From Candidatus Woesearchaeota archaeon (lineage in GTDB: Archaea; Nanobdellota; Nanobdellia; Woesearchaeales; GW2011-AR9): 40,620 nucleotides of DNA. Of the stretch, positions 4,249-28,131 are shown piece by piece (position 1 is the first letter of the stretch; every line of letters starts with the position of its first letter). The DNA lies in contig JAGVYL010000002.1 of NCBI GenBank assembly GCA_018303285.1, positions 6,483-47,102 on the forward strand, read 5' to 3'. The translations under genes were made by a program, and so were the position numbers. Below the pieces are notes generated by a model, which worked only from the letters and a program-made list of their open reading frames with translations, did no database searches and was not told where the DNA came from.

Positions 4249-5832
4249 TTACCATTTTCCTCCAATAACAACGTTAACTTTTCCAAAGTTATCCTCTTCA
4301 AAATTGGAGGGAGTTGAAAAAGAGAGAGAACTGCTGACTTTATCCCCCAAGGGAACGATTAATTTGTAAGACCCGTAATTATCTTTTTCTGGAGCATATT
4401 CTGCGGATAGGATACTTCCATCCTCCAGTTTAAATTTTGCAGAGTATTCTTGTTCTTGTTCTCCCCAGTATACTCCCAATGAAACTCCTTCCGAGATCCC
4501 TGCATAAGTATCAACTCTCCATGTCTTAAAAGTGGTAAGGGGCTGCATAGTGAAATATGCTTTTTTTTCCTCTTCTCTTTGATACTGAGTTGATAGAAAT
4601 ACTTGATTTCCGTTATGTACCACTACGGACTTTACAGTTTCCCCTTCATAAAGAGAATATTCTTTAGCCGCAATTTTGTCTAATGCCATTCCCGCTAAAG
4701 CTGCACCAGCAAATGAACCTATTTTTTTAGGAGCATATCTTGTTTGCAGTTCAGTTTCCAAATCATCCCAAGAAACCAGCCAACTTGGTTTACAGGCCCC
4801 TCCTTCGCAAAATTTTTCCTTTTCTGATGGAAGAATCAATGGTTTAAATGGTTCTGACTTTGTAGGAGACGGGGACTTTGGTGTTTTTTGTTCCTCGGGA
4901 ACTACTTTTTTCGATTTTTGTTCGGGAGGAATCAGGGAAAGTGTAGAAAAAGAACTAGTTTTATCTCCTGCTGATTTTAGTATACCACTTATCTCTCCAC
5001 TAAATGACTTAACAATTTTGCTTTCTATAAGTGCTAAACCAGAGGATTCTCCGGAAGGAAATTCTAATGGATTAAAAGAACGGATGTACGCGATATTCTG
5101 CATATCTATCTTTCCAGTTTTGTAGTTAAGATTAAATTTTCCTTTTGAGTCCGCTTCATTCAACCCTTCAAACCCCACTCCCAGATAAACATACTCCGGA
5201 GTTTCTTTTTTTAACGGATCAGGATCCCAAGTCTTGACAGAAGCCAAATAGATTGCTCTGGCTGTGGCGATTCCTTCAACTGTGATTCCTTCTTCTCCCA
5301 AAGTGACTTTCGTTCCTTCAAAAAGAGATTCTACTTCAGTAAGATGAAAATCGCGCATTCTTGCCCCGTTGGATAAAATGAATTCATTAGCATTTCTGAT
5401 TTCTATCGGACCTTGTGCTTCGCTCAAGTCAAAAAAATTATCCTCAAAAGAAAATCCTTGATCAGAACTTCCTTTCCAAATAGAAAATCCTCCGCCCCCC
5501 AAAGCTTTGATAATTGTTCCTTTAAGATTTTTATCTTTAAGATTTAAAGTTATTCCGTTAGTAATTTCACCATTAGAGTAGATGGTATGACCTTGACTTA
5601 GATCTAGGTTCATCAAATCAGGATGCATCTTTTTGATGGCTTGTTGAGCCAGAGGATATTGACTAAGATCTCCTGCTAATTCTAGATTATCGCCTTCCAT
5701 CCATTGATCTATATTTAATGCAAGAAAATCAATTTTATTTTCTGGTGGCGCAAGAAGTGTTTCCGTCTCTGCTGCCAAAGTTCCATAAGTTATGATAAAG
5801 AAAACAAATAGATAAAAATTTATTTTTCTCAT
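4249..5832 (-). CDS. large secreted protein, partner of pilin-like module 1; beta-rich C-terminus
   Basis: 527 aa, signal peptide, Pro/Lys linker, ATGA overlap with 5829-6644. Confidence 0.8.
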   Translation of the reverse strand: MRKINFYLFVFFIITYGTLAAETETLLAPPENKIDFLALNIDQWMEGDNLELAGDLSQYPLAQQAIKKMHPDLMNLDLSQGHTIYSNGEITNGITLNLKDKNLKGTIIKALGGGGFSIWKGSSDQGFSFEDNFFDLSEAQGPIEIRNANEFILSNGARMRDFHLTEVESLFEGTKVTLGEEGITVEGIATARAIYLASVKTWDPDPLKKETPEYVYLGVGFEGLNEADSKGKFNLNYKTGKIDMQNIAYIRSFNPLEFPSGESSGLALIESKIVKSFSGEISGILKSAGDKTSSFSTLSLIPPEQKSKKVVPEEQKTPKSPSPTKSEPFKPLILPSEKEKFCEGGACKPSWLVSWDDLETELQTRYAPKKIGSFAGAALAGMALDKIAAKEYSLYEGETVKSVVVHNGNQVFLSTQYQREEEKKAYFTMQPLTTFKTWRVDTYAGISEGVSLGVYWGEQEQEYSAKFKLEDGSILSAEYAPEKDNYGSYKLIVPLGDKVSSSLSFSTPSNFEEDNFGKVNVVIGGKW

Positions 5833-6644
5833 TTTTGTTCCTCAACGGCATTTATTTTAGCAGCGAATAAAAATCTTATTGGTTGAGACTCTATCTTTGA
5901 TTGATTGTCTGTAATTAAAAAGAGGTAAGTATCCTTATTAAACAAGGCAGCATCAATAAAATATCCTTCATGTAACAAAGCTAGGGGGTCTATGAAAAAA
6001 GGATGTTCTTGAATCTGAAGAGTAAGATTTTGTACAAAAAGAGAGAGTTCTTTTAATTTAATCTTATGGTTAATTTCGAAGAAAGCTACTTCTCTCTCGG
6101 ATGTACCTTGGATTATTTTTATTGGCCAATTAACCTGGAATAAAACTGTTTGTTCTCCGATTTTAGCGGTAGTTTCCAATTTTCCTATTTGCACATTTGT
6201 TAGATATGCTATGTTTTTATTTAGTCCATTCCCATTTAAAACAGAATAATTCTTGATACCTGCTCCTGTTGCACAAGAGGGCAGATGTTCCTCAATCATT
6301 TCAGCGAGATACTCTTCCATCTCTTCGGTTGAAGGGGTGGTATCCGCTCCTAAATAATGACCATAATTAGCATTAAACATCTCGCCTTCAAAGTAAGGAA
6401 AAAAAATAGTATCCCTGCCGCCGAAATAACCAAGATTCAATAAGGCTTTCCCGCTAACTTTTTTTAAACATTTATCTAGTGTCATCTTTATTTTCTCTGA
6501 TTCTGCATTTAAATAAATAGTATCTTCGACTTCGTTCTGATGTTTAAACCTGGTTCCAATCAAAGATAAAATTAATACTAGTGTGAGAACTATCACCCCC
6601 CCAATAATTATAAACATCGTCACCTGCCCTCGTTTCTTGGTCAT
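5829..6644 (-). CDS. class III signal peptide (pilin-like) membrane protein, paralog 1
   Basis: MTKKRG-QVTMFIIIG, 'LDKCLK', 'GYFGG', C-terminal 'DTYLFLITD...FLFA'. Confidence 0.8.
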   Translation of the reverse strand: MTKKRGQVTMFIIIGGVIVLTLVLILSLIGTRFKHQNEVEDTIYLNAESEKIKMTLDKCLKKVSGKALLNLGYFGGRDTIFFPYFEGEMFNANYGHYLGADTTPSTEEMEEYLAEMIEEHLPSCATGAGIKNYSVLNGNGLNKNIAYLTNVQIGKLETTAKIGEQTVLFQVNWPIKIIQGTSEREVAFFEINHKIKLKELSLFVQNLTLQIQEHPFFIDPLALLHEGYFIDAALFNKDTYLFLITDNQSKIESQPIRFLFAAKINAVEEQK

Positions 6645-6794
6645 ATAAAGCAGGAAAGAAAAGTAGTATTTAAAGATAATCCTGCAGATTAGTAAAAAAT
6701 ATGTAATCGGTCTATAATTCTCAGTTTACTCTGATGGATGTGTGAGGTGAAAAAGTTGCTTCTTCGAACGGGGAAAAAGCGACTAACTAATCAA

Positions 6795-7181
6795 TCATCT
6801 TAGAACTGCTTTAATTTTATGTGTAAAAAGTTCCGCTTGATATTTCTTAAACAATATCTCAATCTTTTCTTTAATTGGTTTTTCTACAGTAGAATCTATC
6901 TCAAAAAACCAAACACTGCTTTTATCTAAATTTGCCCCAAAAATCCTCCGTGAAAAACTATACCATTTTCGTTGATGGTGTATAAATATGTCCGTAAAAT
7001 CCATTTCAGTATGGTCACGAGTTTCGTGATATACTCTATTGCCTCCCAGTTCAACTTTTCCCTCAGCAAACAAAGGGGTGATCTCTTTGGCAATTTTTTC
7101 CATAATTGAAGCTACTGCCACTCCGGGGGCTCTTTTATGTTTATCCATCCCTCCTAACATGTTAATTAGTTTTGCGGTCAT
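6795..7181 (-). CDS. hypothetical protein
   Basis: 128-aa ORF, TATA (TTTATAAA) at ~7206-7213. Confidence 0.7.
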   Translation of the reverse strand: MTAKLINMLGGMDKHKRAPGVAVASIMEKIAKEITPLFAEGKVELGGNRVYHETRDHTEMDFTDIFIHHQRKWYSFSRRIFGANLDKSSVWFFEIDSTVEKPIKEKIEILFKKYQAELFTHKIKAVLR

Positions 7182-7295
7182 GTTCTTTTAATGAGGATTT
7201 TTTCTTTTATAAACTTTGTGTGCTTTCGATTAAGTCTCTACTAAACGTCATCTTTAAATATTAGTTCTTTTTCTCTGTTTTTAGAGGTGATTATT

Positions 7296-8224: not shown

Positions 8225-8240
8225 CTTAATCCTCCCTCCA

Positions 8241-9798: not shown

Positions 9799-10563
9799 AT
9801 GACCCGTCAACCCGTCGTCGCTGGAATGTTTTATCCCAAGAATCCTGATGAGTTAAAACAGATGCTCAGCTCTTTCCTGGAACAAGCAGAAGAGATTAAA
9901 CTGAAAGAAAAACTGCGGGCTTTAATCGTTCCTCATGCCGGATACATCTATTCTGGAATCGTGGCAGCACAAGGGTATAAACTCTTAACCAAGAACCAGT
10001 TCCAGAAAGTAATTTTGCTTGGTCCTTCACATTATGTGGCTTTCTATGACGCGGCTATCGCGGATGAAGATTTCTTAACTCCATTAGGGAAAGTAAAAGT
10101 GGGAGAAATCAATAACTGGATTAAAGAAGGATTGGTGGAAGTATCTTCTGAAGCACATACTAAAGAGCACAGCCTGGAAGTGCAGCTGCCGTTCCTGCAG
10201 GAAACGTTAGGAGATAGGTTTGAATTATATGCTTTAGTATTAGGAACGGTTAATGAAGCTAAATTAGCTAAATTTATTTCCGAGAAATTGGACGAGGACA
10301 CTATTGTGGTGGTCAGCTCTGATTTAAGCCATTACCTGCCCTATAATAAAGCCGTTCTAAAAGATAACCAAACCCTCAACAACATTCTGAAAGGCGATGC
10401 GGCTAATTTAGATGCCTGTGGCAGAATTCCCATTAAAGTATTGATGCATTTAGCTGAACTGAAAGGCTGGAAGCCCAAATTATTGGACTATCGCAATTCT
10501 GGTGATACGGCTGGGGATAAAGGAACGGTGGTGGGGTATGCGAGTATGGCGTGGGTGGAATAA
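9799..10563 (+). CDS. amrB: AmmeMemoRadiSam system protein B (MEMO1 family)
   Basis: 'RQPVVAGMFYP', 'PHAGYIYSG', 'LGPSH', 'EHSLEVQLPFLQ', 'SSDLSHY', 'VVGYAS'. Confidence 0.95.
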   Translation: MTRQPVVAGMFYPKNPDELKQMLSSFLEQAEEIKLKEKLRALIVPHAGYIYSGIVAAQGYKLLTKNQFQKVILLGPSHYVAFYDAAIADEDFLTPLGKVKVGEINNWIKEGLVEVSSEAHTKEHSLEVQLPFLQETLGDRFELYALVLGTVNEAKLAKFISEKLDEDTIVVVSSDLSHYLPYNKAVLKDNQTLNNILKGDAANLDACGRIPIKVLMHLAELKGWKPKLLDYRNSGDTAGDKGTVVGYASMAWVE

Positions 10564-10651
10564 AATCTACGGAATACTTTCCGCTGCCTAAGCTGTCCTT
10601 TCCAACATAATCGCAAACCCAACTGGCTCGGTAGGCTCCACAACCGGAGGC
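10562..10651 (-). pseudogene. fragment paralogous to the 3' end of lipoprotein gene 14874-15209
   Basis: 84/90 nt identical to 14898-14987; encodes ASGCGAYRASWVCDYVGKDSLGSGKYSVDF; in-frame stop upstream and no start. Confidence 0.8.
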
Positions 10652-10733
10652 GATCCAAGCTTCGTCGCTCTTGTAATAGTGGTTAACCTAGATGGCACTA
10701 GTTTTATATACTTTGTTTTTCTTTACCAGAAAT

Positions 10734-11501
10734 ATGTTTAAAAGAGGTCAGATAACAGTTTTTATTATAATCGGGATAGTGGTGTTATTCATAATGGTAG
10801 CTCTCTTATCAACCTACTCTACTATTTCTCTGAAAAAGACTACTGTCTCTGAAGAGGGAGTGTTGGATGCAAGTAATATTGCCGGCCCGATAAAAAGTTA
10901 TGTGGAGTCTTGTTTGGAAAAAACTACCCAAGAGGCTATTTTTGAAAATGGGCTTAAAGGGGGTTATTTTCAGCTTCCCGAAAGATCTACTACTGAATAC
11001 TTAGATAATCTTCCTTATTATGTTTCTCTTGGAGAAAGTTTAATCCCAAACCAAGAAACTTTAGAACAAGAAATACAGAACTATACAAATTACTTTCTCT
11101 ACCGGTGCTTGAAATTTGACTCTTTTAAACAAGAAGGATATAATATAAGTTACGTTGCTCCACAGACAAAAATTATTATTAAGCCCAAAAAAATTATGGT
11201 CACTTTGGATATGCTTGTAGAAATCCAGAGAGATGCTTTTATCACTCAAATATCTAAGTTTGTAGTAGTGATTCCCAATGACCAGCTTTATGCTGATTTC
11301 CAGAGCGTAATAAACGTGCTCAATGAAAGCCAAAGAGGCATGTTTTGTCTTAGTTGCATAGCCACAGAAGGGAAAAAAAACAATCTCACTTTTGTTATCA
11401 ATTCTTTAGGTAACAACACCCACATAATCCGGGTTGTAGACAATGATTATGTCTTTTATTTAGAGCCTTATATCTTAAATTTTGTGGTTAACTATGGTTA
11501 A
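10734..11501 (+). CDS. class III signal peptide (pilin-like) membrane protein, paralog 2
   Basis: MFKRG-QITVFIIIG; 'GPIKSYVESCLEKT', 'GGYF.L.E.ST...N.PYY', 'CLSC'; TATA TTTTATATA at 10702. Confidence 0.85.
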   Translation: MFKRGQITVFIIIGIVVLFIMVALLSTYSTISLKKTTVSEEGVLDASNIAGPIKSYVESCLEKTTQEAIFENGLKGGYFQLPERSTTEYLDNLPYYVSLGESLIPNQETLEQEIQNYTNYFLYRCLKFDSFKQEGYNISYVAPQTKIIIKPKKIMVTLDMLVEIQRDAFITQISKFVVVIPNDQLYADFQSVINVLNESQRGMFCLSCIATEGKKNNLTFVINSLGNNTHIIRVVDNDYVFYLEPYILNFVVNYG

Positions 11502-14088
11502 AAACAGTTGGGTTTGGCTAGCAGTATTTTTGTGTTTAGTTGCAACACTCTCAGCTTTAGATGCCCCTACTTCAAATGATCTTAATGCATTTAATCCGAA
11601 TAATCCCTCCGTTTTCGACTACACTAATGGAGATTATTCTACTATTACTGATTGGAGCAAAGCGGATTGGAACCAAGTAAGATGGGAGAACATTCCTTGG
11701 GGGACTACAAGCTCTAATTCGAAATTTTGGGAGAGCATTCCTATAGATAAAGTTCCCGATATTCCTGAAGACAAAATAAACTATATGTTATTAGGAGAGA
11801 ATCAGAGAAAAGCACTTACTACTAACCAAATTGCGGTTAACTTAGATAAGATTGAGAATCTTGCCACGGATGTTAATCCAGATAATGCTCGGGAAGCAGT
11901 ACTTCAGAAGGCAGGCATATTGGTGGAAAGCTTTGGACAAGGAACTCGGGTGGAACAAGGAATGTTGAAATCAACTACTGGAAAAAAAGACCGGCTGGAT
12001 TTAGGAAAAGTCTCTTCAGAGGGGAAATACTCTCTTAAATCGGGATGGATTGTTACGGTCACAGAAGAGGGGGAAATTTTAGTAAGCAAAAAAAGCCGAC
12101 CAATGGAAGGAAGTTCCCTAGAGGAGGACGTTCCGGTAGAAGAAAAAGATTTTTCGCCCCAAGATTCTTTTACTCTTGAGAGAGTGGATGTTCAACTGTC
12201 TAACGGAAGGGTTGTTCGCCAGGCGAGGCAGCTTAGTTACAAAGAGGAAGAATATTATGTGCCTGAAGGGAAAGAAGCTTATGTTGACTTTTATAAAATT
12301 GGTTTATCTGCTAATGAAGGGGATGAATTAGATCGGTATCTTCTTGAAGACGAAATTAAAGAAGGAAAGATACAGCCCATTACAGTTTATTTTGATGGGA
12401 AAGAACACTCGGGAGATTATGTTTCTTTAGGAGAAAAAGAAGTTTCTTTAGGAAGCACCAACAAAGAAGAAGTAAGGTTAGCACCGCAGCCGGGGAATGA
12501 ATTCTTTTTGATGATAAAAAGAGTCTATGAAAAAGATGATGAAGAGAAATTGATACCAAATCGTTTCACTTTGGTCCCTGATGAGCGAGACACCCTAGAG
12601 ATTACAGTTAAACCTGGAGCCAGCATACTAATAACAAATCGCAAAGAGGACAATTTAATTCCATTAGTACAGAGTACCATTAGTGGTAGTGGTAGTGTAG
12701 AAATAGTAACTGGTCCCGGTAGCAAGATAGAAGACATCACCAAAGGGGCATCATATGATTTGAAATCTGCGGCTTGGGGAGATGTTAGTTTGATGAACGG
12801 AAACAGCGTTCCTTTAGAATTTATTCCAACTGATAGAAAATCAAGAATATTAATTACTTCTTCTAATCGCCTGGCAGCAATAGACTATGATGATGTTAGC
12901 CGCTTTTACGCAACTACCGCTGCTGGACTTAAAGTAACAAACAATCTAGATTTTAACTTGATAAAAACCGAAGACGATGTGGCAGTAAGATTCCCAAATT
13001 TAGAGTTTGCAAGAAAAAATATCTGGACCGGGGAGACAAATCCAAAGAATTATCCCGTAATCAGCCCAAATCTCGCTCAGCTGACTATAGAATGGCTGGA
13101 AAAAAATCCGAAAGTTGGCATTTTAAAAGGGGTATTTTTTGCGGATACTTATAATGCGGCTAATATTAATGATCCCAACAAACCGGGTTATATAATAATT
13201 GGAGATAAGATTTCTGAAGAAGAGAACTTAAAGATGACCGGCGTACGAGAGATGAAAACGGTCTTCGAAGTACTAAACCACGAAATGAACCACATGCAAG
13301 ATACTTACGTTAAAGTAGAAGAGAATAAATTGAATGGAAAAGAGAATCCCACTTTAAATGAAGTTTATAAAGAACTCTATGAGGACTTTGGAAAACAACT
13401 TACACTGGAGAAAGGGTTCCAACTATTCTTGAGTGAACCTTCACCACCGATAACACTAGGCAACCTTAAAACTAGAAGAGAAGACATTGCTACTGTTCTG
13501 AAAGCATTGGTTGATGATAATGTTGATAATGTCAAGAACGCAGCGAATGCGCTTCAGATTACAGAAGAAAAATTTCGAAAAGAGATTATGGAAAATCCGA
13601 TTATTAGTCGTGTCGCAAAAAAAATACTTACCACAGAAGGATTAGAAGTGAATGGAAAAATAGTATTACTTGAGTTTAATGAGAATTATGACAAAGCTAC
13701 TCCTGAAGAAAAGAGTAGTGTTGCTGCTGCTTTTGTGAGTGAAAAGCTACCTGCTTTATCCTTCCTGAAGATTGATGATACTAACCTCCAGTCAGCAGTA
13801 AGAGAAATAATTCCTTTAAAAGAGGGAGAATACGCACTTCACGCCTATCTATTCGAAGAAGGTAGATCATACGCCGAAATGGGAACTGTACCTTTAGAAA
13901 TTCCACCTAATCGGGTAGCGATGTCTATCGCCAGCGGCAATGAATTTCTACGTAAAGCCACCCAAGTTGCTTACGATGTTGGTAAGATAGATCAATTAGA
14001 ATACCAACAACGAATGGGCTTTTATTGTGATGTTTTTCCTCAAAATTGTGGTAAGTGTATTGTTTACAAGCGCACTTGCAAGCCATAA
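11494..14088 (+). CDS. large secreted HExxH metalloprotease-like protein, partner of module 2
   Basis: Signal peptide; HEMNH; distal 'YA..AY...Y.E'; C-terminal YCDVFPQNCGKCIVYKRTCKP; paralog of 25011-27401. Confidence 0.8.
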   Translation: MVKNSWVWLAVFLCLVATLSALDAPTSNDLNAFNPNNPSVFDYTNGDYSTITDWSKADWNQVRWENIPWGTTSSNSKFWESIPIDKVPDIPEDKINYMLLGENQRKALTTNQIAVNLDKIENLATDVNPDNAREAVLQKAGILVESFGQGTRVEQGMLKSTTGKKDRLDLGKVSSEGKYSLKSGWIVTVTEEGEILVSKKSRPMEGSSLEEDVPVEEKDFSPQDSFTLERVDVQLSNGRVVRQARQLSYKEEEYYVPEGKEAYVDFYKIGLSANEGDELDRYLLEDEIKEGKIQPITVYFDGKEHSGDYVSLGEKEVSLGSTNKEEVRLAPQPGNEFFLMIKRVYEKDDEEKLIPNRFTLVPDERDTLEITVKPGASILITNRKEDNLIPLVQSTISGSGSVEIVTGPGSKIEDITKGASYDLKSAAWGDVSLMNGNSVPLEFIPTDRKSRILITSSNRLAAIDYDDVSRFYATTAAGLKVTNNLDFNLIKTEDDVAVRFPNLEFARKNIWTGETNPKNYPVISPNLAQLTIEWLEKNPKVGILKGVFFADTYNAANINDPNKPGYIIIGDKISEEENLKMTGVREMKTVFEVLNHEMNHMQDTYVKVEENKLNGKENPTLNEVYKELYEDFGKQLTLEKGFQLFLSEPSPPITLGNLKTRREDIATVLKALVDDNVDNVKNAANALQITEEKFRKEIMENPIISRVAKKILTTEGLEVNGKIVLLEFNENYDKATPEEKSSVAAAFVSEKLPALSFLKIDDTNLQSAVREIIPLKEGEYALHAYLFEEGRSYAEMGTVPLEIPPNRVAMSIASGNEFLRKATQVAYDVGKIDQLEYQQRMGFYCDVFPQNCGKCIVYKRTCKP

Positions 14089-14135: not shown

Positions 14136-14846
14136 TTAAAAGATATTCTCTAAATCTTGCATACAAGTTGGACAAAAAGTACCATAAATCACTTTCTCCT
14201 CCTGGCCAAGAACACGGCCTAAAAAGTCAGCCTTCTGCTGCACAAAAGAAGTATGGCTTTGCATTACGCATTCATTAACACAATGTCTTCCAGCAGGAGT
14301 ATACTTTACATTTTCTATTCGTTCATTTGGGATTAAGCCTAAAATATGGCCCATTTCATGCATAGCTAAACTTCGAATATTTTGGCAGGCATCTTTTTTT
14401 TCTCCATGTCTAGAAGCATAAGTTGAGATTACCGCCGCTTCTCCCGATGCAGCCAGGCCATTCAAAAAAATAGTTTCCCCATTGACTTCAATATAAATTT
14501 CCTCGTGATGCACCAAGATTTCATAAGGCTTTTTTTTCCAGCTGTGATGGCTTCCTTTGTCTCGTGGTGCTCTTTCACTTAATGCAGAAAGAAGCGCTGA
14601 AGCGTTGAGCAAACCTTTTCTTTCACTAGCAATTCTTCCTTGTTCAATATACCAATCAACACTCTGATGAGGTTTTAAAGAACCATCTGCATTTTTGTGC
14701 TCTTCCGTTTTCCAATCATACAAATTAACCAAACCATTACTCCCTGCCGCGGTTAGCATAAGAACACTGTAAATACCATCCATCACCGCTTTTCTTTCTA
14801 ATTCATAAATCCCTTCCTGGTCCATGATACGAACAGGTTTAATCAT
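14136..14846 (-). CDS. archaemetzincin-like zinc peptidase
   Basis: HEMGHILG followed by HC...CVM...FCPTC; 'AVIST'. Confidence 0.75.
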   Translation of the reverse strand: MIKPVRIMDQEGIYELERKAVMDGIYSVLMLTAAGSNGLVNLYDWKTEEHKNADGSLKPHQSVDWYIEQGRIASERKGLLNASALLSALSERAPRDKGSHHSWKKKPYEILVHHEEIYIEVNGETIFLNGLAASGEAAVISTYASRHGEKKDACQNIRSLAMHEMGHILGLIPNERIENVKYTPAGRHCVNECVMQSHTSFVQQKADFLGRVLGQEEKVIYGTFCPTCMQDLENIF

Positions 14847-14873
14847 TTTTAACTTTCCTCGGTTTAATCTGTC

Positions 14874-15209
14874 TCATTCTTCCATCTTTTCGTAATCAAA
14901 ATCTACGGAATACTTCCCGCCGCCTAAGCTGTCCTTTCCGATATAGTCGCAAACCCAACTGGCTCGGTAGGCTCCACAGCCGGAGGCTGCCCATATCTCA
15001 TTTCGGTGTTCTACAATTTCATAAAGATCCTTATCTAATCGGTTCAGTTCCGGGCTGCCATCATAATACTTGGACTTCCACTCGCAGGTGTTTCCAAATG
15101 CATCTTCTAACTTTTCCACTTTAGCCATGCATTCTTTTAGCTTTGCATCCTGGCATCCGCTAGTTAAACCCATTAGTACAGTTGCAATGGAGATTATTGA
15201 TTTGTTCAT
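14874..15209 (-). CDS. small Cys-containing lipoprotein
   Basis: Lipobox LTSG-C; ATGA overlap with upstream gene. Confidence 0.75.
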   Translation of the reverse strand: MNKSIISIATVLMGLTSGCQDAKLKECMAKVEKLEDAFGNTCEWKSKYYDGSPELNRLDKDLYEIVEHRNEIWAASGCGAYRASWVCDYIGKDSLGGGKYSVDFDYEKMEE

Positions 15210-16786: not shown

Positions 16787-18003
16787 TTTACCTCTTCTCG
16801 TAACTGTTGTCTATATCGTTCAACCAGTGGAGCTAAAATTTTTTGTCTCTTATACTCCAACTGCTCTAAATTCTGTAGCACGGGCTCGTTCAAGCGTAAT
16901 CTCATGGGGGCAGTAGTGATTGGCCCCCTATAACCGTCAACCAAAGAATCAATTACGGCGGCAAACTGTTCTTCCATCTGAGAATCATGATATAAATTAA
17001 ATGTAGTTTGCGCTCCGAGAGCTAATCCAGATGAAATATTTCCATAAATAATAAGCAGGTCAACATAAGATACAAGTGCCCGGTCTATTCTCTCGGCCAG
17101 AGCAGGGGAGATTTCTTCATTATTTTGGGAGGTTATATTGTCAACCATTGAAGAAAGTAAATCCATATACTCTTTTTTTGTTTGTTGATAGCGAGTTAGG
17201 TCAAATAGTTTTCCTCGAGCTAGAGGATTATCGATTGGTTCTACTTTTGGACAGGCGGGGGATATTTTAGATGATTGGTGATAAATTATCTTTGCTTCTT
17301 CTTTGGCACATTCTCCGGCATCAACAGAAGTTTTAACTATCTTTGCAGCGGCGGTATATTTTTCTTTAGTACAGTTAGGAAACATTTTTTTGTAGGCATC
17401 ACGCGTGGCTTTAACTGCGTCTGAATTAAAATCTACCCCTAACTCTTGCAAAATAGCAGTAAATTCTCGGTCATATTTATCTAAAGCTAAGAACTCTTTA
17501 CAAAGCGACAAGTCATGGATCTGCTCTCCAACCTGACTAAAGATTTCTGCAGTTTTCTCCATCTTAATTTGTAATTGGCGAAAGCTTTCTGCATCAGGCA
17601 TCTGTAACCTTTCATCAATTGCTTCAGCTAATTTTTCTTTTGATTCTTTTGAAAGACTTGGATAGATATGATGCCCTAATTCATGTTCTAAAGAATCAGT
17701 CTGACACCGGGTATAATCTAGAGTGCAACGGATAATAATCTTATTTGGCAGGTAACTACAAGTTAAGATGGAGTTAGTAGTTTCTAATTCCACTGTCAAT
17801 TCTGATTGTTCAATCTCTTCAGCAATCACGGGAGAAAAATCTTCTGCCCTTCTTTCAAGATCTGCCTGTGCTTTTAATCGATTCTCCTCTTCTATTGTTG
17901 GTTGGACTATTTTGGGTGTGTCTGGTTTAACAGCTACTTCTGAAAGATTACATCCAGCAACTGCTGTGACAATCAAAGAAGATATGATCTTGGGTAGGCT
18001 CAT
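16783..18003 (-). CDS. lipoprotein with HExxH zincin motif
   Basis: Lipobox AVAG-C; HELGHH; distal 'EEQFA'. Confidence 0.75.
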   Translation of the reverse strand: MSLPKIISSLIVTAVAGCNLSEVAVKPDTPKIVQPTIEEENRLKAQADLERRAEDFSPVIAEEIEQSELTVELETTNSILTCSYLPNKIIIRCTLDYTRCQTDSLEHELGHHIYPSLSKESKEKLAEAIDERLQMPDAESFRQLQIKMEKTAEIFSQVGEQIHDLSLCKEFLALDKYDREFTAILQELGVDFNSDAVKATRDAYKKMFPNCTKEKYTAAAKIVKTSVDAGECAKEEAKIIYHQSSKISPACPKVEPIDNPLARGKLFDLTRYQQTKKEYMDLLSSMVDNITSQNNEEISPALAERIDRALVSYVDLLIIYGNISSGLALGAQTTFNLYHDSQMEEQFAAVIDSLVDGYRGPITTAPMRLRLNEPVLQNLEQLEYKRQKILAPLVERYRQQLREEVK

Positions 18004-18021
18004 TTAGTTTTCTCCGCTTTT

Positions 18022-18894
18022 TTATTTCTCTTTAGGATTTATCATTTCTTCCATTTCCAAATATTTTACTGGTGGATTTGTTATTAAGTCCACATCAGTT
18101 CCTTCTTTAAGTCCAATCCAAGCCGGAAAATCACATCTACGGTCTTCCTTCCTTTGAAAAGACATAGACTTCGCACGATAAGTGTTAAAGACAACAGAGA
18201 AATTCTTTCCGGCAGTAGCCTGAGAAAGGAAATATCCCAACGGATTTCCACAACCTATCTCTGTACGACATTCACCTGTGCTTCTTGGAGAACATTTTTT
18301 AGATGAAGGTTGTTCTATCGCATGCCATGCACCAAAAAAGAGAATTACTTTTGATTCGGGATTATCTGAAAAAACTTTCTTCTCCAGATTGTGGTAGATT
18401 TGAGCATCTCGATTAACTACTTTTCCTTCTATTTCATCTGGTCCGTCATGACAATCATGAGAATCAATAGCGTACACTTTAATCCCTGCTTCTTTTGCTT
18501 TATGTAAAAAGTAGAGGAACCCTTTACGCATACTATAAGTTTCTTTAGAGAACTGCTCATCGCTGATCTCCCCTTCTAAAAAGCGGTCTAATATTGGTTG
18601 GCTGTGATAGTCTAATTCTACTCCTAAGTTATTGTACCCTCTCGTTTTCAGTTTTGCCAGCAAATCACCTGCAAAATAATCATCTGCATCAACATCATGA
18701 AATTCACCTAAAATAAGGGTTTGGCTTTGTTCAGCTTGTTTGAGAATAGTTTCCTCTAAATCTGGCGTTTGCTCATTTTTTTTAAGAACAATTATTTGTG
18801 AAGGGCTAAGACTAGTCATCTCTAAGTTAGAAGTAGCGCATCCGGCTAACGCAAGAGCTAGACTTGCTCCTGCAATTAAATGTTTTAGACTCAT
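18022..18894 (-). CDS. lipoprotein of the ChaN/EreA/Tiki-like hydrolase superfamily
   Basis: Lipobox LAG-C; 'LILGEFHD', 'LGVEL', 'VYAID', 'RD', 'FFGAWH'. Confidence 0.75.
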   Translation of the reverse strand: MSLKHLIAGASLALALAGCATSNLEMTSLSPSQIIVLKKNEQTPDLEETILKQAEQSQTLILGEFHDVDADDYFAGDLLAKLKTRGYNNLGVELDYHSQPILDRFLEGEISDEQFSKETYSMRKGFLYFLHKAKEAGIKVYAIDSHDCHDGPDEIEGKVVNRDAQIYHNLEKKVFSDNPESKVILFFGAWHAIEQPSSKKCSPRSTGECRTEIGCGNPLGYFLSQATAGKNFSVVFNTYRAKSMSFQRKEDRRCDFPAWIGLKEGTDVDLITNPPVKYLEMEEMINPKEK

Positions 18895-19448
18895 TTTCTC
18901 TTCTCCGTTTTTTCATAATTACATTTTATTTTTGGATTAGAAGAAGTTGCTGTAGCTTGATAAGCAGTCAAATCTTCTAAAGTAATATATCCATCATTAT
19001 TGAGATCATCTGCAGGAGATAAGTAACAATCACCATTGACATCTGCAGGAATAAAGTTATCTTTAATTGTTCCTGCGACCAAATATGCAATCATAGATGG
19101 AGATAATTCACCTTTTCTGACCTTATCGCAATCGCTGTTCCACAATATGTATTCCATTATTAGAGATTTAGCATATTCTAACGAGCCAAGCCGGCCATCT
19201 TTTGGATCAGCTTTTTCACTCGAGCAGGGAGATTGCCAGCCATCATATCTTTGAATTGTTTTTGCTAATTCGGTGAAGCAAGTTAAGTCCTTTTCCATCA
19301 ACTCTACAGAAGATGAAGATGAACAAGTGGCTTTGTCTGCTAAAGTAGTCTTAGAATAAGCAGGAGCATCTGCCAAAGCAGGCGAACTAGTTAACCCTAA
19401 ATAAAATGCTGCCAGTCCAGTTATGATTGCCGTTTTTATGTTTACCAT
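18891..19448 (-). CDS. secreted protein with tandem EF-hand/dockerin-like Ca-binding loops
   Basis: Signal peptide ALA-D; 'DVNGDCYLSPAD' and 'DLNNDGYITLED'; TATA TTTATAAA at ~19508. Confidence 0.75.
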   Translation of the reverse strand: MVNIKTAIITGLAAFYLGLTSSPALADAPAYSKTTLADKATCSSSSSVELMEKDLTCFTELAKTIQRYDGWQSPCSSEKADPKDGRLGSLEYAKSLIMEYILWNSDCDKVRKGELSPSMIAYLVAGTIKDNFIPADVNGDCYLSPADDLNNDGYITLEDLTAYQATATSSNPKIKCNYEKTEKRK

Positions 19449-23858: not shown

Positions 23859-24003
23859 TTATTCTTGTTTTTTTATTTTAGCAATGAAAAAACTATCGTC
23901 ACTCACTCTATTCGTGCTGGAAGTTTCTTTATCTTGGCGATAAAAAAACTATCGTCACTCATTCTATTCTTGCCGGAAGTTTTTTTATTTTAGCAATAAA
24001 AAA
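23859..24003 (-). repeat. 56-bp tandem triplication of the RsmB gene 3' end, creating two coupled micro-ORFs (23903-23962, 23859-23906)
   Basis: Units encode FFIAKIKKLPARIE*, MSDDSFFIAKIKKLPARIE* and MSDDSFFIAKIKKQE*. Confidence 0.85.
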
Positions 24004-24921
24004 ACCTTCCGTATCATTGTCCTGCGGCCAAATACGCAAGCACTTTTTTATTTCTGGAGAATATGTTTCTTTTTCAAACTGTAGAACGGCCGGACTGTGC
24101 TTTAAACCGTGCAGTTTTATTTCTTCCAATCTGGCTGCAGGATATTTCTCCAAAAGCCAATTGATTACTCCTTCATCTTCTTCCGGCTCTAAAGTGCAGG
24201 TAGAATAAACCAGCTCTCCGCCTTCTTTAAGATTGTTGAAAGCTGTTTCCAAAAGCTTTCTTTGCTGAGAAGCCAACCGTTTGGCCGCTTGAGGATTCCA
24301 CCAGTTAAGAATGCGGGGAGATTTCATAATTGTTCCTGTACCTGTACAGGGGGCGTCCAAAAGAATCTTATCGAACTGTATGGTCTTAAAACCATAGCCA
24401 GTCATATTTGTAACTACCACATTGAGAATGCCGCTTCTCTGAAGATTAATTCCCAAGGATTTGATTCTTTCTCCGCTCAGCTCATTGGCAATGATAATTC
24501 CTTTGTTCTGCATCATGGCGGCCATCTGAGTTGTTTTACTCCCTGGAGCAGCACACATATCCAAAACAATCTCTCCTGGTTTCGGCTGAAGAACAATAGG
24601 GGGAATCATGGATGAAGCATCTTGGACGTAGAAATAGCCAAGATGATGCTCAAGCAGATTACCGATGTCTCGGCGTTCTTCTCTCTTATGGCTGATCCAG
24701 AATCCTTCCTTACACCAAGGAATAGGCTGAAGAGACCAGTTTTTTTCTATGCGGTTTTTTAATTCAGAAGCAGATATTTTGAGAGTGTTAGCACGGATAG
24801 AACGGCGAAGAAAAGAGAGAGAAGCTTGTTTGAATGTTTCCCAATCAGTTAATTGAGAGTATCTCTCGATAAACTTTTCTTTGAAAACGTATTTGCCGGC
24901 ATTGGGGAAGGGGGGAAGCAT
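23959..24921 (-). CDS. RsmB/NOP2 (NOL1/NOP2/Sun) RNA m5C methyltransferase
   Basis: 'YVQDASSM', 'LDMCAAPGSKT', 'LLDAPCTG', 'VYSTCT', 'EGFFIA'. Confidence 0.95.
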   Translation of the reverse strand: MLPPFPNAGKYVFKEKFIERYSQLTDWETFKQASLSFLRRSIRANTLKISASELKNRIEKNWSLQPIPWCKEGFWISHKREERRDIGNLLEHHLGYFYVQDASSMIPPIVLQPKPGEIVLDMCAAPGSKTTQMAAMMQNKGIIIANELSGERIKSLGINLQRSGILNVVVTNMTGYGFKTIQFDKILLDAPCTGTGTIMKSPRILNWWNPQAAKRLASQQRKLLETAFNNLKEGGELVYSTCTLEPEEDEGVINWLLEKYPAARLEEIKLHGLKHSPAVLQFEKETYSPEIKKCLRIWPQDNDTEGFFIAKIKKLPARIE

Positions 24922-24974: not shown

Positions 24975-25018
24975 TATTTATTCGGTATTTATTCGATATT
25001 TATTCGGTATTTATTCTG
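24975..25018. repeat. 11-bp tandem repeat x4 (TATTTATTCNN)
   Basis: TATTTATTCGG, TATTTATTCGA, TATTTATTCGG, TATTTATTCTG; last unit contains the stop codon of the 801-aa gene. Confidence 0.85.
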
Positions 25019-27401
25019 CTTTACAAGTTAGTTTATATTTCAGGCACGGTCCACACGGGTTTTTACTGCAATATGAACCATCTTTGCCGCCCATAATTTG
25101 ATAGTACCTTTCTTCGGCTTGCTGCCAAAGCCAGTCTGGAGGGTCAGTGCTTATCACTAAATCGTATTCTAACTGGGCACAAGATAAACATTTTTTGGCT
25201 TCAGGAATTGGCAACTCGCTGTATACAGAAAATATTTCTTCATAATTTCCTCCGTAAGCCCTAAATGCATACGGATAAAAACCAGTTTCTTCCCGTATGA
25301 AATGCGTATACCTGTTTCTTAAATCCTCTGCCCCCTCAATTTTTTCCTCGGTCCAATAATCCAGATTAGCGCCAATCTTTTGGATGTAGTCCGCTCTGAG
25401 GGGGGAATCCTTACTTTCTAGCATAAGAGATTTTAAATGTTCTCCGTTTGCTACACCTTTTCCCAGGTCTTGTGCTTTTCTTGCTAATTCTTCTACTTCT
25501 TCGACCATTATTTCAAAATCTTCAGAAGAACTAACATATATCTCATCCGCAAGATTAACCGCTATCGTGTTTTCTTTCATTTCAATACCTCTCGATTTAA
25601 GGATAGCTTTAAGGTGTTTATCTCCTAATTCCATAATCTGACTATTTAATTCTTTTTCAGTTATTTCTTCGGATTCAAATCTTTCTAAAAGCAATCCTTC
25701 TTCAACAAGATATTCTGGTGAATCTTTAAGATGTACCTCGGAAGCTTCTTTAGAAATTATATACCCCTTCAGAATGTGTTTAAACTCATGATCTAATGTT
25801 CCTAAAGGCGTGGTCCCAGTTCTGATTGCAGGATTAAAAGAAATAGTGGAACCGTCCATCATTCTTTCTCCTACGGATAAGGTTAACAAAGTGCCTCCGG
25901 CATTTAACTGAGTGCCAAAGTACACTTGAGAGATGTATTTGTTCAGGCTGGTTTTTCCTTTTAGCCATTGGTCTGTAGTTTGGGCTAGATTAGCTGTAAT
26001 CTCTTGGTATTCTGGAGGAGTAGGATTGCCATACCCTTTTTTAAGATACTCTTCTATACTTTCTGGTGTAGCCATTCCGATAGAAAAATCTATTTGGGGG
26101 TGTTTCACCCGCAGATCATCCATAGTTTTCATCATATTCGATTCAATAAAATCAGAAACCTCCAGCCCCAGACTATTTCCCCCTATAGGTTTATCGTTTC
26201 TTAACAAAAGATATCTATTTGAAGAGCTTGTTCTAAGAAGGTCTGCGAAATTATTTGAGATCAATTCCATAGCAACACTATTCCGTTGGTCTATCGGGCC
26301 GGCCTTTCCTTCGAATGGCTTGGAAGGAATCATAGTCAGTTTTCCTTCCTGGACGTTTATTCCCATTCGGCCATTTTCTAAACTTGTTTTTCCGCCTCCG
26401 TTCTGATGCCTTAATAAAGGAGTTTTTTCCGCTTCGGCACGAGAAATAACCTCTAAATTATCTCCCCCCAAAACAGTTATAGACAGCGTATCTCTCTCAT
26501 CAGGCACCCAGGTAAACTTATCTTTAATCAGCTTTCCATCTTCATCTTTCTCGTACTGCCGTTTTACCATATTGAACAGAAGATTTCCCGGTAGAGGATC
26601 GATTTTAACCGTTCCGTCTTTAGTCGTTCTGATATCTAATCCTGCATCAGAGATAGCTATATAATTACCTTCTGGTTTGATTAAAGGATTAAAATGAATA
26701 TCTATCGGATTGGTCTCTGCGAGAATCTCGTAAAAATCTATTCTTGCCGTATTCCCTAGTTTCACATAGCTTTGACCATTTCTAAAACTAAGCGATTTAA
26801 CGGACAGAACAGAGCCATCTTTTCCAATGTATGCTGTTTCCTCCTGTATGGTAAAACTATCTTCAAAAGAAATGCTGCTTTCTTGAATTTCCTTGAGACC
26901 GAGATGATTTATCTCTCCGTTTTCATCTATTTCTACTTCCCAGCCTTCCTTTCCGGCAAAGACTAAACTCTCCTCTTCTCCAAAAGTAGCTCTAAGAATA
27001 CCGTGGACGATTTTAGCGCTCTGGCCTAAGCTTTTAACCTTGATTTGGGTTACTTTTTCGATCGCCTCTCTGGCGCGCTCTTCGTTTACATCAATCGCTA
27101 AATTGTTAATTTTTTCTAGATTAAGAACGATTTGTTCTGTGGTCGTAGCCAAACGTTGATCCACGTTAAGTTGATTGTAGTTTAGTTTATCTGCGGGGAC
27201 ATCGGGAATTCTGGAGGGGGGAATTTTACTCCAGATTGCATTACCCCAATCGATAGAAGAATAATCGCCGGTTTGATAATTGAACTGCTCTGGTGCATCT
27301 TTGTTCCAAGGACAATCAATATCTTCTGGACAAGCGGCAAAAGAGATAGGAAGAACTAACAAGATAACTAGTATGAATAGATTAAGTTTATTCTTTTTCA
27401 T
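25011..27401 (-). CDS. large secreted HExxH metalloprotease-like protein, partner of module 3
   Basis: Signal peptide; HEFKH; 'YAFRAYGGNYEEIF'; C-terminal YCSKNPCGPCLKYKLTCKAE; paralog of 11494-14088. Confidence 0.8.
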   Translation of the reverse strand: MKKNKLNLFILVILLVLPISFAACPEDIDCPWNKDAPEQFNYQTGDYSSIDWGNAIWSKIPPSRIPDVPADKLNYNQLNVDQRLATTTEQIVLNLEKINNLAIDVNEERAREAIEKVTQIKVKSLGQSAKIVHGILRATFGEEESLVFAGKEGWEVEIDENGEINHLGLKEIQESSISFEDSFTIQEETAYIGKDGSVLSVKSLSFRNGQSYVKLGNTARIDFYEILAETNPIDIHFNPLIKPEGNYIAISDAGLDIRTTKDGTVKIDPLPGNLLFNMVKRQYEKDEDGKLIKDKFTWVPDERDTLSITVLGGDNLEVISRAEAEKTPLLRHQNGGGKTSLENGRMGINVQEGKLTMIPSKPFEGKAGPIDQRNSVAMELISNNFADLLRTSSSNRYLLLRNDKPIGGNSLGLEVSDFIESNMMKTMDDLRVKHPQIDFSIGMATPESIEEYLKKGYGNPTPPEYQEITANLAQTTDQWLKGKTSLNKYISQVYFGTQLNAGGTLLTLSVGERMMDGSTISFNPAIRTGTTPLGTLDHEFKHILKGYIISKEASEVHLKDSPEYLVEEGLLLERFESEEITEKELNSQIMELGDKHLKAILKSRGIEMKENTIAVNLADEIYVSSSEDFEIMVEEVEELARKAQDLGKGVANGEHLKSLMLESKDSPLRADYIQKIGANLDYWTEEKIEGAEDLRNRYTHFIREETGFYPYAFRAYGGNYEEIFSVYSELPIPEAKKCLSCAQLEYDLVISTDPPDWLWQQAEERYYQIMGGKDGSYCSKNPCGPCLKYKLTCKAE

Positions 27402-28131
27402 TATAACGCACCGCAAATCTCAAATGATATTTTTCCCCTTCGTGAAGATACTCGCTTTGTTCTATATCAAACAGATAGGTGTCATTACTAACAGAAAGAA
27501 GATTAACGAAAAGACCATTTTGGGAAGCTAATTCTGAAAAACAGCTTAAACAGACTTCTTCGTCTTTTTGGGATTGAACAATCTGCTTGGCCGTCTGAAA
27601 GGCAGAGTACATCTTTTTAGATGAGATTTCCGTAACAAAGGAAGAAATCTCTTTGACTTGATTATTTTTGGTGATAGTTGCCAGAAGATTGGTGTTCAGA
27701 ATTATTTTTTGCGTAGTTAAGATGACCTGAGAAGAAGGTTTAGAAAAATTAATGTTATAATCGGAATCTTTGGAGAAATCAGTTACGCATAAGCCAACTA
27801 ATGAATCAACGTATTTAGATAATTGCTGGGCGAGGATTTCATCTGTAGGAAAAATGTTTTCTTTTCCATTAAGATAGTAGGGGACATTTTCTGTTGATTC
27901 TAATGTTGATTTTTCCGATAGAATGAAGTAACCGCCCCGCCGGCTGTTCTCAAAGACGGCATCTTCCAGAGTTTTCTTTAGGCAAGATTGAATATATTCT
28001 TGAATTGGACCAGTGTTTAAAACGTTTGGCTCCGGCTTCTCTTTAAAGGAAAAAAAGAAAAACGCGGCAAGGATAAGAAAAAGGAAAATACCAAAAATAA
28101 TAAAAATAGTAATTTGCCCCGTTTTAGCCAT
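27388..28131 (-). CDS. class III signal peptide (pilin-like) membrane protein, paralog 3
   Basis: MAKTG-QITIFIIFG; 'GPIQEYIQSCLKKT', 'GGYFILSEKST...NVPYY', 'CLSC'. Confidence 0.85.
   Translation of the reverse strand: MAKTGQITIFIIFGIFLFLILAAFFFFSFKEKPEPNVLNTGPIQEYIQSCLKKTLEDAVFENSRRGGYFILSEKSTLESTENVPYYLNGKENIFPTDEILAQQLSKYVDSLVGLCVTDFSKDSDYNINFSKPSSQVILTTQKIILNTNLLATITKNNQVKEISSFVTEISSKKMYSAFQTAKQIVQSQKDEEVCLSCFSELASQNGLFVNLLSVSNDTYLFDIEQSEYLHEGEKYHLRFAVRYNEKE

Follow-up and report, generated by a model that had tools for sequence, protein, structure and literature searches.

Class III signals combine a short basic leader and a small residue (G/A/S) at -1 with a hydrophobic stretch of about 20 residues. 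Solved pilins have an extended N-terminal alpha-helix, the C-terminal part of which packs on an antiparallel sheet, and in partners of the PilY1/PilC type a conserved C-terminal strand completes the pilin sheet.

Several systems are known in which proteins with pilin-type signals mount other proteins on the surface. Minor pilins with large secreted partners are represented by PilK-PilC/PilY1 (PMC13533445) and by CofB-CofJ and TcpB-TcpF (PMC6048534, PMC9565799). In the type IVa tip complexes, a class III-signal protein of the PilK/GspK family is encoded beside a large Sec-signal non-pilin, PilC/PilY1, which has no anchor of its own and is carried at the filament tip by a minor pilin, within a four-pilin complex (PMC13533445). 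In ETEC (CofB-CofJ) and V. cholerae (TcpB-TcpF), the minor pilin is large and has several domains; it binds a soluble Sec-exported product of its own operon, which it presents or exports (PMC6048534, PMC9565799, PMC10120004). Each of these pilus operons encodes a single such pair, whose genes are not known to overlap translationally. The Sulfolobales bindosome ("functionalised T4F") uses a prepilin-type signal, fused to the functional domain, to mount non-pilin functional proteins, among them substrate-binding proteins, on the surface, and its genes are scattered away from the assembly machinery (PMC13705601). Archaeal Epd-type ("system 1") loci combine many class III-signal minor pilins with two platform genes and large secreted adhesin candidates, predicted to be PilY-like; reports of system 1 pilins cover 1990 genomes of Nanobdellati (PMC4858521, PMC13705601). 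Finally, large proteins with a pilin-like N-terminus, of the TadG/CpaL type, act in tip initiation of Tad pili (PMC13533445).

We analyzed a window of 40,620 nucleotides from a Candidatus Woesearchaeota archaeon, which holds three two-gene modules, each consisting of a class III-signal protein (anchor) followed by a large Sec-signal protein (cargo). The arrangement is like that of the type IVa tip complexes, including the lack of a membrane anchor on the cargos. However, neither sequence similarity nor convincing fold similarity to PilK, PilC or PilY1 was found, no PilY1-type Pfam domain was found in any cargo searched, and the cargo families have unrelated C-termini with no common strand-like motif. 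Moreover, there is one head per partner here instead of a four-pilin complex, there are many paralogous pairs per genome, and the organism is an archaeon. Homology between the modules and CofB-CofJ or TcpB-TcpF was not detected. Like the bindosome genes, the modules lie away from the assembly machinery, but their functional part is a separate Sec-exported polypeptide, a Pfam search found no substrate-binding-protein domain in the anchors, and no ABC transporter was seen adjoining any of the three modules. The accessible parts of the Epd-type accounts contain neither this head family nor one-to-one pairing (PMC4858521, PMC13705601), and DUF2341, reported there in large system-1 proteins, is absent from the Pfam matches of the cargos. 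The only likeness of the anchors to TadG/CpaL-type proteins is a set of matches to TadE/G-like Pfam models (Tad/TadE), below the Pfam cut-offs (E 0.0067-0.18) and confined to the hydrophobic N-terminus; no vWA or other domain common with these proteins was found in the anchors. Full-text literature searches listed no description of the head family.

Three modules of a class-wide gene pair

The positions of the modules are collected in Table 1. The first-pass annotation had described three paralogous ORFs of about 250-270 aa that share short sequence motifs and each overlap the start of a large Sec-signal gene, and this description holds. In pairwise BLASTP, anchors 2 and 3 are 33% identical over 205 aa (E 2e-44); anchor 1 is the most divergent of the three (E 3e-10 with anchor 2, 1e-3 with anchor 3). 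The motifs are seen in the three-way alignment, where K4, G6, Q7, T9, F11, I12, I13, G15, C59, L60, K62, G75, G76, T239 and F260 are invariant. Alternative upstream starts exist for anchor 2 (ATG at 10692) and anchor 3 (TTG at 28146). The anchor stop and the cargo ATG overlap by 4 nt (ATGA) in module 1, 8 nt in module 2 and 14 nt in module 3, and all three cargos begin with a hydrophobic signal that ends, as read by eye, in an A-x-A-like site.

Table 1. Positions in the window of the three anchor-cargo modules and of the direct repeat around module 2
Feature	Position	Strand	Description
Anchor 1	5829..6644	-	271 aa; class III-type N-terminus MTKKRG|QVTMFIIIG; Cys 59, 124
Cargo 1	4249..5832	-	527 aa; Sec-type signal; no family match; orphan
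Anchor 2	10734..11501	+	255 aa from ATG 10734; MFKRG|QITVFIIIG; Cys 60/125 and C205xxC208
Cargo 2	11494..14088	+	864 aa; Sec-type signal, conserved N-terminal region, HEMNH 13279-13293, C-terminal CGKCxxYxxTC
Anchor 3	27388..28131	-	247 aa; MAKTG|QITIFIIFG; Cys 50/115 and C194xxC197
Cargo 3	25011..27401	-	796 aa; cargo 2 homolog; HEFKH 25776-25790; C-terminal CGPCxxYxxTC
Direct repeat, left copy	10562..10651		90 nt; left of module 2 and the 236-aa HExxH gene
Direct repeat, right copy	14898..14987		90 nt; within 111-aa ORF 14874-15209(-)

Two of the modules had also been placed near MITE or duplication scars. Module 2, together with one more gene (the 236-aa HExxH gene), is flanked by the two repeat copies, which are 93% identical, and a search of the window found no inverted repeats of at least 40 nt. 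The duplication scar is thus confirmed, while the MITE is not. About 0.9 kb separates module 1 from an ORF for an IS240-type DDE transposase.

The three anchors belong, as short forms, to a very large family, as yet unnamed, that also has long forms. There are 8 copies in this genome, and the family occurs in 31 of 31 relatives and in 192 of 201 sampled genomes of the class; it has 9074 cluster representatives at E<=1e-3. A genome carries 2-12 paralogs, every one of which has a partner of its own. No match over cut-off was found for it in Pfam, NCBIfam or PDB sequences, and its neighbors in a protein atlas are all "hypothetical" archaeal clusters. The modules of the window are lineage-variable short forms of a class-wide two-gene system of Nanoarchaeia, i.e., of DPANN archaea of the Woesearchaeota and Pacearchaeota type.

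The proposal of a two-gene module depends on anchor homologs elsewhere being coupled to a large secreted gene as well, and this is what we observe. In this genome, each of the 8 copies is directly followed, on its own strand, by a large signal-bearing gene. As a background, a strict version of this downstream-gene criterion picks out 14 of the 765 ORFs of at least 150 aa in the genome, 5 of which are anchors. Among the 12 best-hit loci whose DNA extends beyond the anchor, the downstream gene has a signal-like N-terminus in 11, and the gap between anchor and cargo is -44 to +38 nt, likewise in 11. In four relatives the first or second downstream gene encodes a large signal-bearing protein for 26 of 31 anchors, the other 5 having no large secreted neighbor, and the gap to the next gene is within 40 nt for 22 of the 31. 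The reverse comparison agrees: an anchor lies immediately upstream in 6/6 loci with homologs of the HExxH cargos. The coupling is far beyond chance.

The pairs are also inherited together. The grouping of the anchor tree matches cargo family exactly: the 6 groups need 5 changes, which is the minimum, and none of 200 shuffles gave a value as low. Anchor 1 is sister to the anchors of two further loci (L070/L071, support 94/91). Anchors that group exactly by cargo family imply that the pairs co-diverge and are passed on as units rather than freely exchanged; the earlier suggestion of an exchangeable cargo is not supported in that form. The variation comes from fast cargo divergence, from orphan cargos and, in one of the 13 homologs of the HExxH cargos, from an exchange of the C-terminal enzyme domain.

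Anchor and cargo proteins

The anchors share one layout. A basic leader of 4-6 residues and a G/A/S|Q site precede a hydrophobic stretch of about 22 residues, which a polar linker of variable length joins to a cysteine-bearing alpha/beta head of roughly 200 aa. Among 104 aligned family members, K is found at -3 in 90, R/K at -2 in 101, G/A/S at -1 in 89/11/4, Q at +1 in every one and F at +5 in 99, and the leader is 4-6 aa long in 96. A FlaFind-like pattern matches anchors 1 and 2 among 19 matches altogether; the pattern requires K, R, D or E at -2, and anchor 3 (MAKTG|Q), with a T in this position, falls outside. Small pilin-like genes in the same genome carry a [KR][GA]|Q site too, and no curated pilin family in Pfam or NCBIfam matches the anchors over cut-off. 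These motif statistics, together with the A24 prepilin peptidase gene in the genome, bear out the class III signal ascribed to the anchors. By their N-termini they are prepilin-like proteins, with cleavage predicted at G|Q.

A pilin-like helix at the N-terminus had been expected as well, and the AF2 model of full-length anchor 2 (pLDDT 94.1) contains a long helix at residues 4-74, followed by an alpha/beta head with beta-sheets. The confidence is lower at residues 31-50 (pLDDT 69-82), and the distance from Q to the first Cys, a variable polar stretch, ranges over 44-54 residues among the three paralogs. A linker of variable length with lower pLDDT gives the protein the look of a flexible tether, rather than of a tightly packed filament subunit. 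Foldseek returned nothing at E<=1e-3 for either the full-length model or a model of the head alone (pLDDT 92.7). The matches of the full anchor 2 model in VIA-align were mostly trivial long-helix matches, and a TssE/gp25-like fold, which reached Z 6.1 with the full model, was rejected after falling to Z 4.2 with the head alone. None of 48,161 PDB representative chains reached Z>=5 in the head-only search; pilins and pseudopilins make up 6 of the 50 matches listed, at Z only 3.2-3.7, and the head exceeds typical pilins in size. As modeled, the head has no convincing match to a known fold and is not convincingly pilin-like.

The cargos had been called variable, but not every one of the three is distinct. 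Cargos 2 and 3 are homologs (27% identity, E 3e-70). Cargo 1 is unrelated to either, found no homologs in 30 relatives when used as the query, and is not similar to the cargos of its sister anchors (L070/L071) or to the C20 cargo. No family match over cut-off was found for the cargos in Pfam, NCBIfam or PDB sequences. In 13 homologs of the HExxH cargos, H543 is invariant, E544 and H547 are at least 90% conserved, and the near-invariant E727 and E734 are candidates for the third metal ligand. The motif is present in the cargos of 5 of 6 relatives; the sixth ORF extends past the end of its locus. Conservation of the HExxH points to cargos 2 and 3 as putative secreted zinc hydrolases. Peptidase_M91 matches below threshold (E 0.11), no peptidase family over cut-off was found in the 13 homologs, and a search of PDB sequences gave no match. 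In one of the 13, a poly-gamma-glutamate hydrolase domain (PF05908, E 1.5e-38) replaces the HExxH region, and one cargo copy in the genome is the N-terminal part alone, 440 aa long. For the cargo C-terminus, the protein atlas gave scores of only 0.88-0.89 and one cluster with 17% ATLF, which is a lead only. Further cargo families include giant Ig/FN3-like and Cys-rich proteins. We also considered whether the anchor CxxC co-varies with the C-terminal Cys motif of the cargo, and rejected the idea because anchors with CxxC pair with cargos that lack the motif.

Probable filament machinery and possible modes of action

The genome encodes an A24 prepilin peptidase (contig C18; PF01478, 55.4 bits vs. 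a cut-off of 26.5) and a divergent T2SSE-family ATPase (PF00437, 58.8 bits, a 768-aa ORF), which are found in 28 and 31 of 31 genomes respectively. The PF00482 platform protein has no match in this genome; among 18 relatives from the window's own family it is recognizable in 2, and the other 16 gave no match. However, an 8-TM protein adjoins the ATPase in one relative (G027), with a sub-threshold PF00482 score of 21.4 bits vs. 25.2, and has a homolog in this genome (E 9e-30 over 91 aa) whose gene is truncated by a contig end. The divergent ATPase and its 8-TM partner are found throughout the order, and this neighbor is probably the platform protein.

Several gene neighborhoods connect the family to such machinery, in keeping with the pilus association that had been proposed. 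In this genome and in 4/4 relatives examined, a conserved series of small genes, about 10-14 in number, begins with one core paralog; the small genes are pilin-like by their N-terminal motifs alone, with no support from Pfam. A short-form module directly follows the ATPase gene in relative G016, and in G028 canonical pilins, two platform genes and the ATPase lie about 4 kb from core modules; the proximity is similar in G024 and G022, judged by coordinates. By gene context, the family is associated with type IV filament genes.

The two-gene unit is real, and we infer a mechanism for it. We tentatively favor a head that is trimmed by the A24 peptidase, mounted by the type IV filament machine and holds its cognate secreted partner on the surface, which is quite possible on this evidence. 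Specifically, the prepilin peptidase would trim the head protein, and the filament machinery (the divergent ATPase of ~770 aa and the probable 8-TM platform) would insert it into a short filament, at its tip or its base. The second gene is translationally coupled to the first, and its large Sec-exported product (for modules 2 and 3 a putative zinc hydrolase with an HExxH motif, for module 1 an orphan) would be kept at the cell surface by the head. Several different partners could then be presented by one machine. On this model, the probable role of the family is to display enzymes and adhesins at the cell surface.

The same observations can be read without a filament. In a bindosome-like arrangement the head, trimmed or uncut, would simply stay in the membrane by its N-terminal helix and hold the partner as a static tether. 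The Sulfolobales bindosome is a known case of surface proteins that have class III signals but form no filament (PMC13705601), and the variable polar linker between hydrophobic segment and head, the size of the head and its not convincingly pilin-like fold, the many paralogs with individual partners, and a canonical platform protein found neither here nor in 16 of 18 genomes of the family all fit such a tether. We nevertheless consider it somewhat unlikely, since a mere anchor has no need for a near-invariant Q(+1) and F(+5), and since it leaves aside the conserved run of small pilin-like genes beside one core paralog, the ATPase and platform genes near modules in several genomes, and the occurrence of the divergent ATPase with its 8-TM partner throughout the order.

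Two further explanations loosen the bond between anchor and cargo. The anchor could have a transient role, after which the partner is released: it could work like the piston of a pseudopilus across the S-layer, on the lines of type II secretion or TcpB-TcpF, or it could chaperone or inhibit the hydrolase. The giant Ig/FN3-like and Cys-rich cargo families, typical of surface structures, argue against release, and non-enzymatic cargos are left unexplained by an inhibitor role, making this distinctly unlikely even though the cargos have no anchor of their own, two have the conserved HExxH, translational coupling suggests 1:1 production, and pilus-dependent secretion of TcpF and CofJ is a precedent (PMC9565799, PMC10120004, PMC6048534). 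It is very unlikely that the two products have no physical partnership and that co-transcribed envelope genes (e.g., for S-layer-associated proteins) just travel together. Any linked gene pair would show the co-clustering of anchor and cargo family on the tree, but the pairing persists in both the short and the long anchor forms, with no fewer than six cargo families and over the whole class, it is also seen in dispersed single modules such as the three here, and the cargo start typically overlaps the anchor stop.

The model of a filament-mounted head can be taken one step further. Polymorphic toxin and effector systems have a conserved delivery part, interchangeable C-terminal enzyme domains and an immunity gene. 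It is conceivable, though unlikely, that one filament machine uses interchangeable "tip cartridges", each head priming or capping a filament loaded with its own secreted enzyme or adhesin. The basic attachment apparatus would then be built from three ancient cartridges, and the fast-evolving short forms (HExxH hydrolases and the orphan) would be contact-dependent effectors with host or competitor cells as their target. If this is true, pilus-dependent secretion would have a counterpart in archaea that also employs polymorphic effectors.

Archaea of the Woesearchaeota and Pacearchaeota type occur in abundance, are uncultured and presumably depend on other cells. The secreted proteins with which the anchor family is consistently paired are the largest in these very small genomes. 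Being near-universal (192/201), multi-copy and unnamed as well, the family is a concrete candidate for surface-display or host-contact machinery, and with no convincing match to its head among the PDB representative chains it is a structural target too. A head protein that holds its own secreted partner would take the principle of a minor pilin carrying a secreted partner beyond a few bacterial pili to an entire class of archaea, with one head for each partner.

Anchor and cargo genes in the window

The three small open reading frames singled out by the first-pass annotation are present and paralogous: anchors 2 and 3 are 33% identical (E 2e-44), and pairwise comparison gives E 3e-10 for anchor 1 with anchor 2 and E 1e-3 for anchor 1 with anchor 3. 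The common motifs attributed to them are real, and in all three modules the stop codon of the anchor gene overlaps the ATG of the cargo gene, by 4, 8 or 14 nt. The cargo products are 527, 864 and 796 aa long, each with a Sec-type signal at the start as read by eye. The first-pass annotation needs one correction: cargos 2 and 3 are homologous (27% identity, E 3e-70), leaving cargo 1 as the one unrelated cargo.

Cargos 2 and 3 are putative zinc hydrolases, a designation taken solely from their HExxH motif because no curated peptidase family was reached. In 13 cargo homologs a conserved N-terminal region of ~500 residues is followed by this motif (H543 invariant, E544 and H547 conserved at 90% or above), by near-invariant Glu residues ~180-190 positions further on, and by a C-terminal CGPCxxYxxTC tail. 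In one homolog of cargo 3 (protein P0167) the N-terminal ~500 residues are kept and a poly-gamma-glutamate hydrolase domain (PF05908, E 1.5e-38) replaces the HExxH region, which looks like a C-terminal enzyme-domain swap. One copy in the window's own genome (G000) consists of the N-terminal cargo part alone, 440 aa. The cargos of this family are thus built from a conserved N-terminal part and an enzymatic end that varies.

The source genome is archaeal (~0.99 Mb, 50 contigs, completeness 93.6%), and the modules have archaeal housekeeping genes as neighbours (archease, TrmB-type regulators, AlaRS). Protein-atlas neighbours of the window proteins are from Nanobdellota/Woesearchaeota, and relatives of these proteins carry no database name beyond 'hypothetical protein [Candidatus Nanoarchaeia archaeon]'. 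The repeat pair around module 2 is consistent with an inserted or duplicated 4.3-kb segment; its left copy appears to be a piece of the 111-aa ORF gene, since the right copy lies inside that ORF. The ORF pair ~0.9 kb from module 1 is possibly a frameshifted or two-part transposase, and the 64-nt repeats, which enclose small unknown ORFs and an N6/N4 DNA methylase, may mark where an integrated element ends on either side. Among the six secreted or lipoprotein-like genes one is ChaN/Tiki-like (PF04187, E 1.7e-9) and two carry HExxH; no family match was found for the rest of the set.

Features of the window and of its source genome
Feature	Position	Strand	Remarks
Anchor 1	5829-6644	-	
Overlapping ORFs, 132 and 226 aa	7287-8224	+	second with IS240-type DDE transposase domain, E 4.8e-9
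Direct repeat, 90 nt	10562-10651 and 14898-14987		93% identical; copies on either side of module 2 plus the 236-aa HExxH gene
Anchor 2	10734-11501	+	
Six secreted or lipoprotein-like genes	14136-19448	-	co-directional, between modules 2 and 3
HEMGH motif	14346-14360	-	one of the six genes; product 236 aa, weak met-zincin/matrixin matches
111-aa ORF	14874-15209		contains right copy of 90-nt repeat
HELGH motif	17671-17685	-	another of the six genes
Tandem 56-nt repeats, three	23867-24034		second and third 86% and 61% identical to first; span 5' end of methyltransferase gene
RsmB/F-type methyltransferase gene	23959-24921	-	
Anchor 3	27388-28131	-	
Bro-N domain gene	28944-29711		immediately upstream of left 64-nt repeat copy
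Direct repeat, 64 nt	30080-30143 and 35853-35916		77% identical; flanks ~5.8 kb
Core-paralog cluster (loci L085, L036)	G000:C12:10000-28800		unidirectional
ATPase locus (L086)	G000:C43:19768-23968		holds gene for divergent T2SSE-type ATPase, 768 aa

An unnamed family spread across the class, with a prepilin-type signal

A profile search of the window's own genome found eight anchors, five short (252-288 aa) and three long (658, 793 and >761 aa), and after every one the next gene, on the same strand, encodes a large protein with an N-terminal signal (440 to 1311 aa). The family occurs in 31/31 close relatives (1-12 matches per genome) and in 192 of 201 genomes of a phylum sample (E<=1e-5), all labelled as the same family, order or class as the window's genome, and kin genomes of this sort are non-independent samples. 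A library of 1.84 billion proteins yielded 9074 cluster representatives at E<=1e-3, 2147 of them at E<=1e-30. No match was found in Pfam, NCBIfam or PDB sequences, and the portions available to us of the literature on the closest systems contain no description of the anchor-cargo family (PMC13533445, PMC13705601, PMC4858521).

The class III signal first proposed by inspection is borne out by an alignment of 104 members, whose N-terminus has the form of a prepilin-peptidase site: M-x-K-[RK]-[GAS]/Q-[VIL]-[TS]-x-F-[IV]-[IV]-x-G, the slash marking the junction. Q(+1) is invariant, residue -1 is G in 89 members, A in 11 and S in 4, and the leader has 4-6 residues in 96. Small pilin-like genes of the window's genome bear the same [KR][GA]/Q junction. 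An AlphaFold2 model from 100 sequences (pLDDT 94.1) predicts a helix at residues 4-74 followed by two helix-plus-beta-meander units, with a variable polar stretch at residues 31-50 where pLDDT falls to 69-82. The head, i.e., the alpha/beta part after the helix, was modelled on its own at pLDDT 92.7 and had no convincing structural relative among 48,161 representative chains (none at Z>=5); pilins or pseudopilins made up 6 of the 50 rows listed, only at Z 3.2-3.7, and Foldseek returned nothing at E<=1e-3.

Coupling and co-inheritance of anchor and cargo

The anchor is paired with a large Sec-exported protein, and the two genes overlap translationally. Best-hit loci were taken one per relative from 19 relatives, and in 11 of the 12 that had DNA past the anchor a gene whose N-terminus is signal-like starts -44 to +38 nt from the anchor stop. 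We also tallied 31 anchors in four relatives picked for contiguity (few contigs; G018, G010, G025 and G002), using ~7 kb around each listed non-edge match and leaving out contig-end matches and those beyond the ones listed. A strict rule (gap <=40 nt, signal-like N-terminus, and either >=500 aa or an ORF still open at the locus end), with signal peptides and small pilins called by simple in-house rules, held for 20 of them. Two more fail solely through a miscalled start or the locus end, in another two the large gene is 137 or 478 nt away, and in two the secreted gene (1151 aa or more) comes second, behind a small Cys-rich secreted one; five are without a large secreted neighbour. As background, the rule picks out 14 of 765 ORFs of >=150 aa in the window's genome, 5 of which are anchors. 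In the reverse direction, homologs of cargo 3 were found in 4/30 relatives, and an anchor gene lies directly upstream in 6/6 loci examined.

Anchor-cargo pairs are inherited together. All-against-all BLAST sorted 36 downstream proteins into six families, with eleven left as singletons. Family membership follows the size class of the anchor: HExxH cargos are coupled to anchors of 212-269 aa, the ~900-940-aa cargos to anchors of 341-433 aa, Cys-rich proteins to 571-851 aa, FN3/Ig-like giants (1684 aa or more) to 653-708 aa, and the ~1040-1110-aa cargos to 747-775 aa. Mapped on a maximum-likelihood tree built from 41 anchor domains, the labels of the six cargo families require 5 changes, the minimum possible; shuffled labels require 15.3 on average, and 0/200 shuffles came down to 5. 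The first-pass idea of an exchangeable cargo is not supported in the form given: the pairs are co-inherited, not shuffled. The genomes examined all have three recurrent long-form pairs, often within one locus, in the order anchor, ~1000-aa protein, ~500-aa protein, small membrane protein, second anchor, giant. The variable fraction of the family is the short forms, including the three in the window; for cargo 1 no homolog was detected in 30 relatives, and it does not resemble the cargos that accompany the sister clade of its anchor.

Filament machinery and a proposed role for the anchor

Both a prepilin peptidase and a T2SSE-type ATPase are present. The window's genome encodes an A24 peptidase, found in 28/31 genomes, and homologs of its T2SSE-type ATPase (~760-795 aa) occur in 31/31. 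A recognisable platform protein (PF00482) was found in only 12/31 genomes, in 2/18 within the window's own family, and not in the window's genome. In one relative (G027:C7, L103) the ATPase is followed by a 721-aa protein with eight TM segments and a sub-threshold T2SSF match (21.4 bits), whose homolog in the window's genome (48% identity over 91 aa, E 9e-30) lies 1.3 kb past the ATPase, cut by the contig end. The two may be an unrecognised filament ATPase/platform pair of this order.

One core anchor paralog heads a unidirectional cluster with about 10-14 small class III-like genes, which have no Pfam support; the cluster has the same order in the window's genome and in 4/4 relatives examined (G010, G002, G025, G018). 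In the window's genome it begins with a 793-aa anchor; next come a Cys-rich secreted protein of 1311 aa that carries CarboxypepD_reg domains, one of 747 aa, and ~ten small genes. A short-form module directly follows the ATPase gene in G016, the core modules of G028 have canonical pilins ~4 kb away together with two platform genes and an ATPase of 485 aa, and coordinates suggest similar proximity in G024 and G022; these are noticed cases rather than a systematic survey.

We tentatively favour the anchor as a filament-dependent display adaptor over a static membrane tether. The tether reading stays alive because of the variable linker of the anchors and the weak platform evidence, though we hold it to be rather unlikely. 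A transient role of the anchor in export or maturation seems improbable, and that anchor and cargo have no partnership at all seems more improbable still. The closest known systems are minor pilin-PilC/PilY1 tip complexes (PMC13533445), CofB-CofJ and TcpB-TcpF (PMC6048534, PMC9565799), and, among archaea, system-1 loci and functionalised filaments of the bindosome type (PMC13705601, PMC4858521). As a display adaptor, the anchor would have its signal cleaved, its head would bind the secreted partner, and the two would be mounted on or by a type IV filament.
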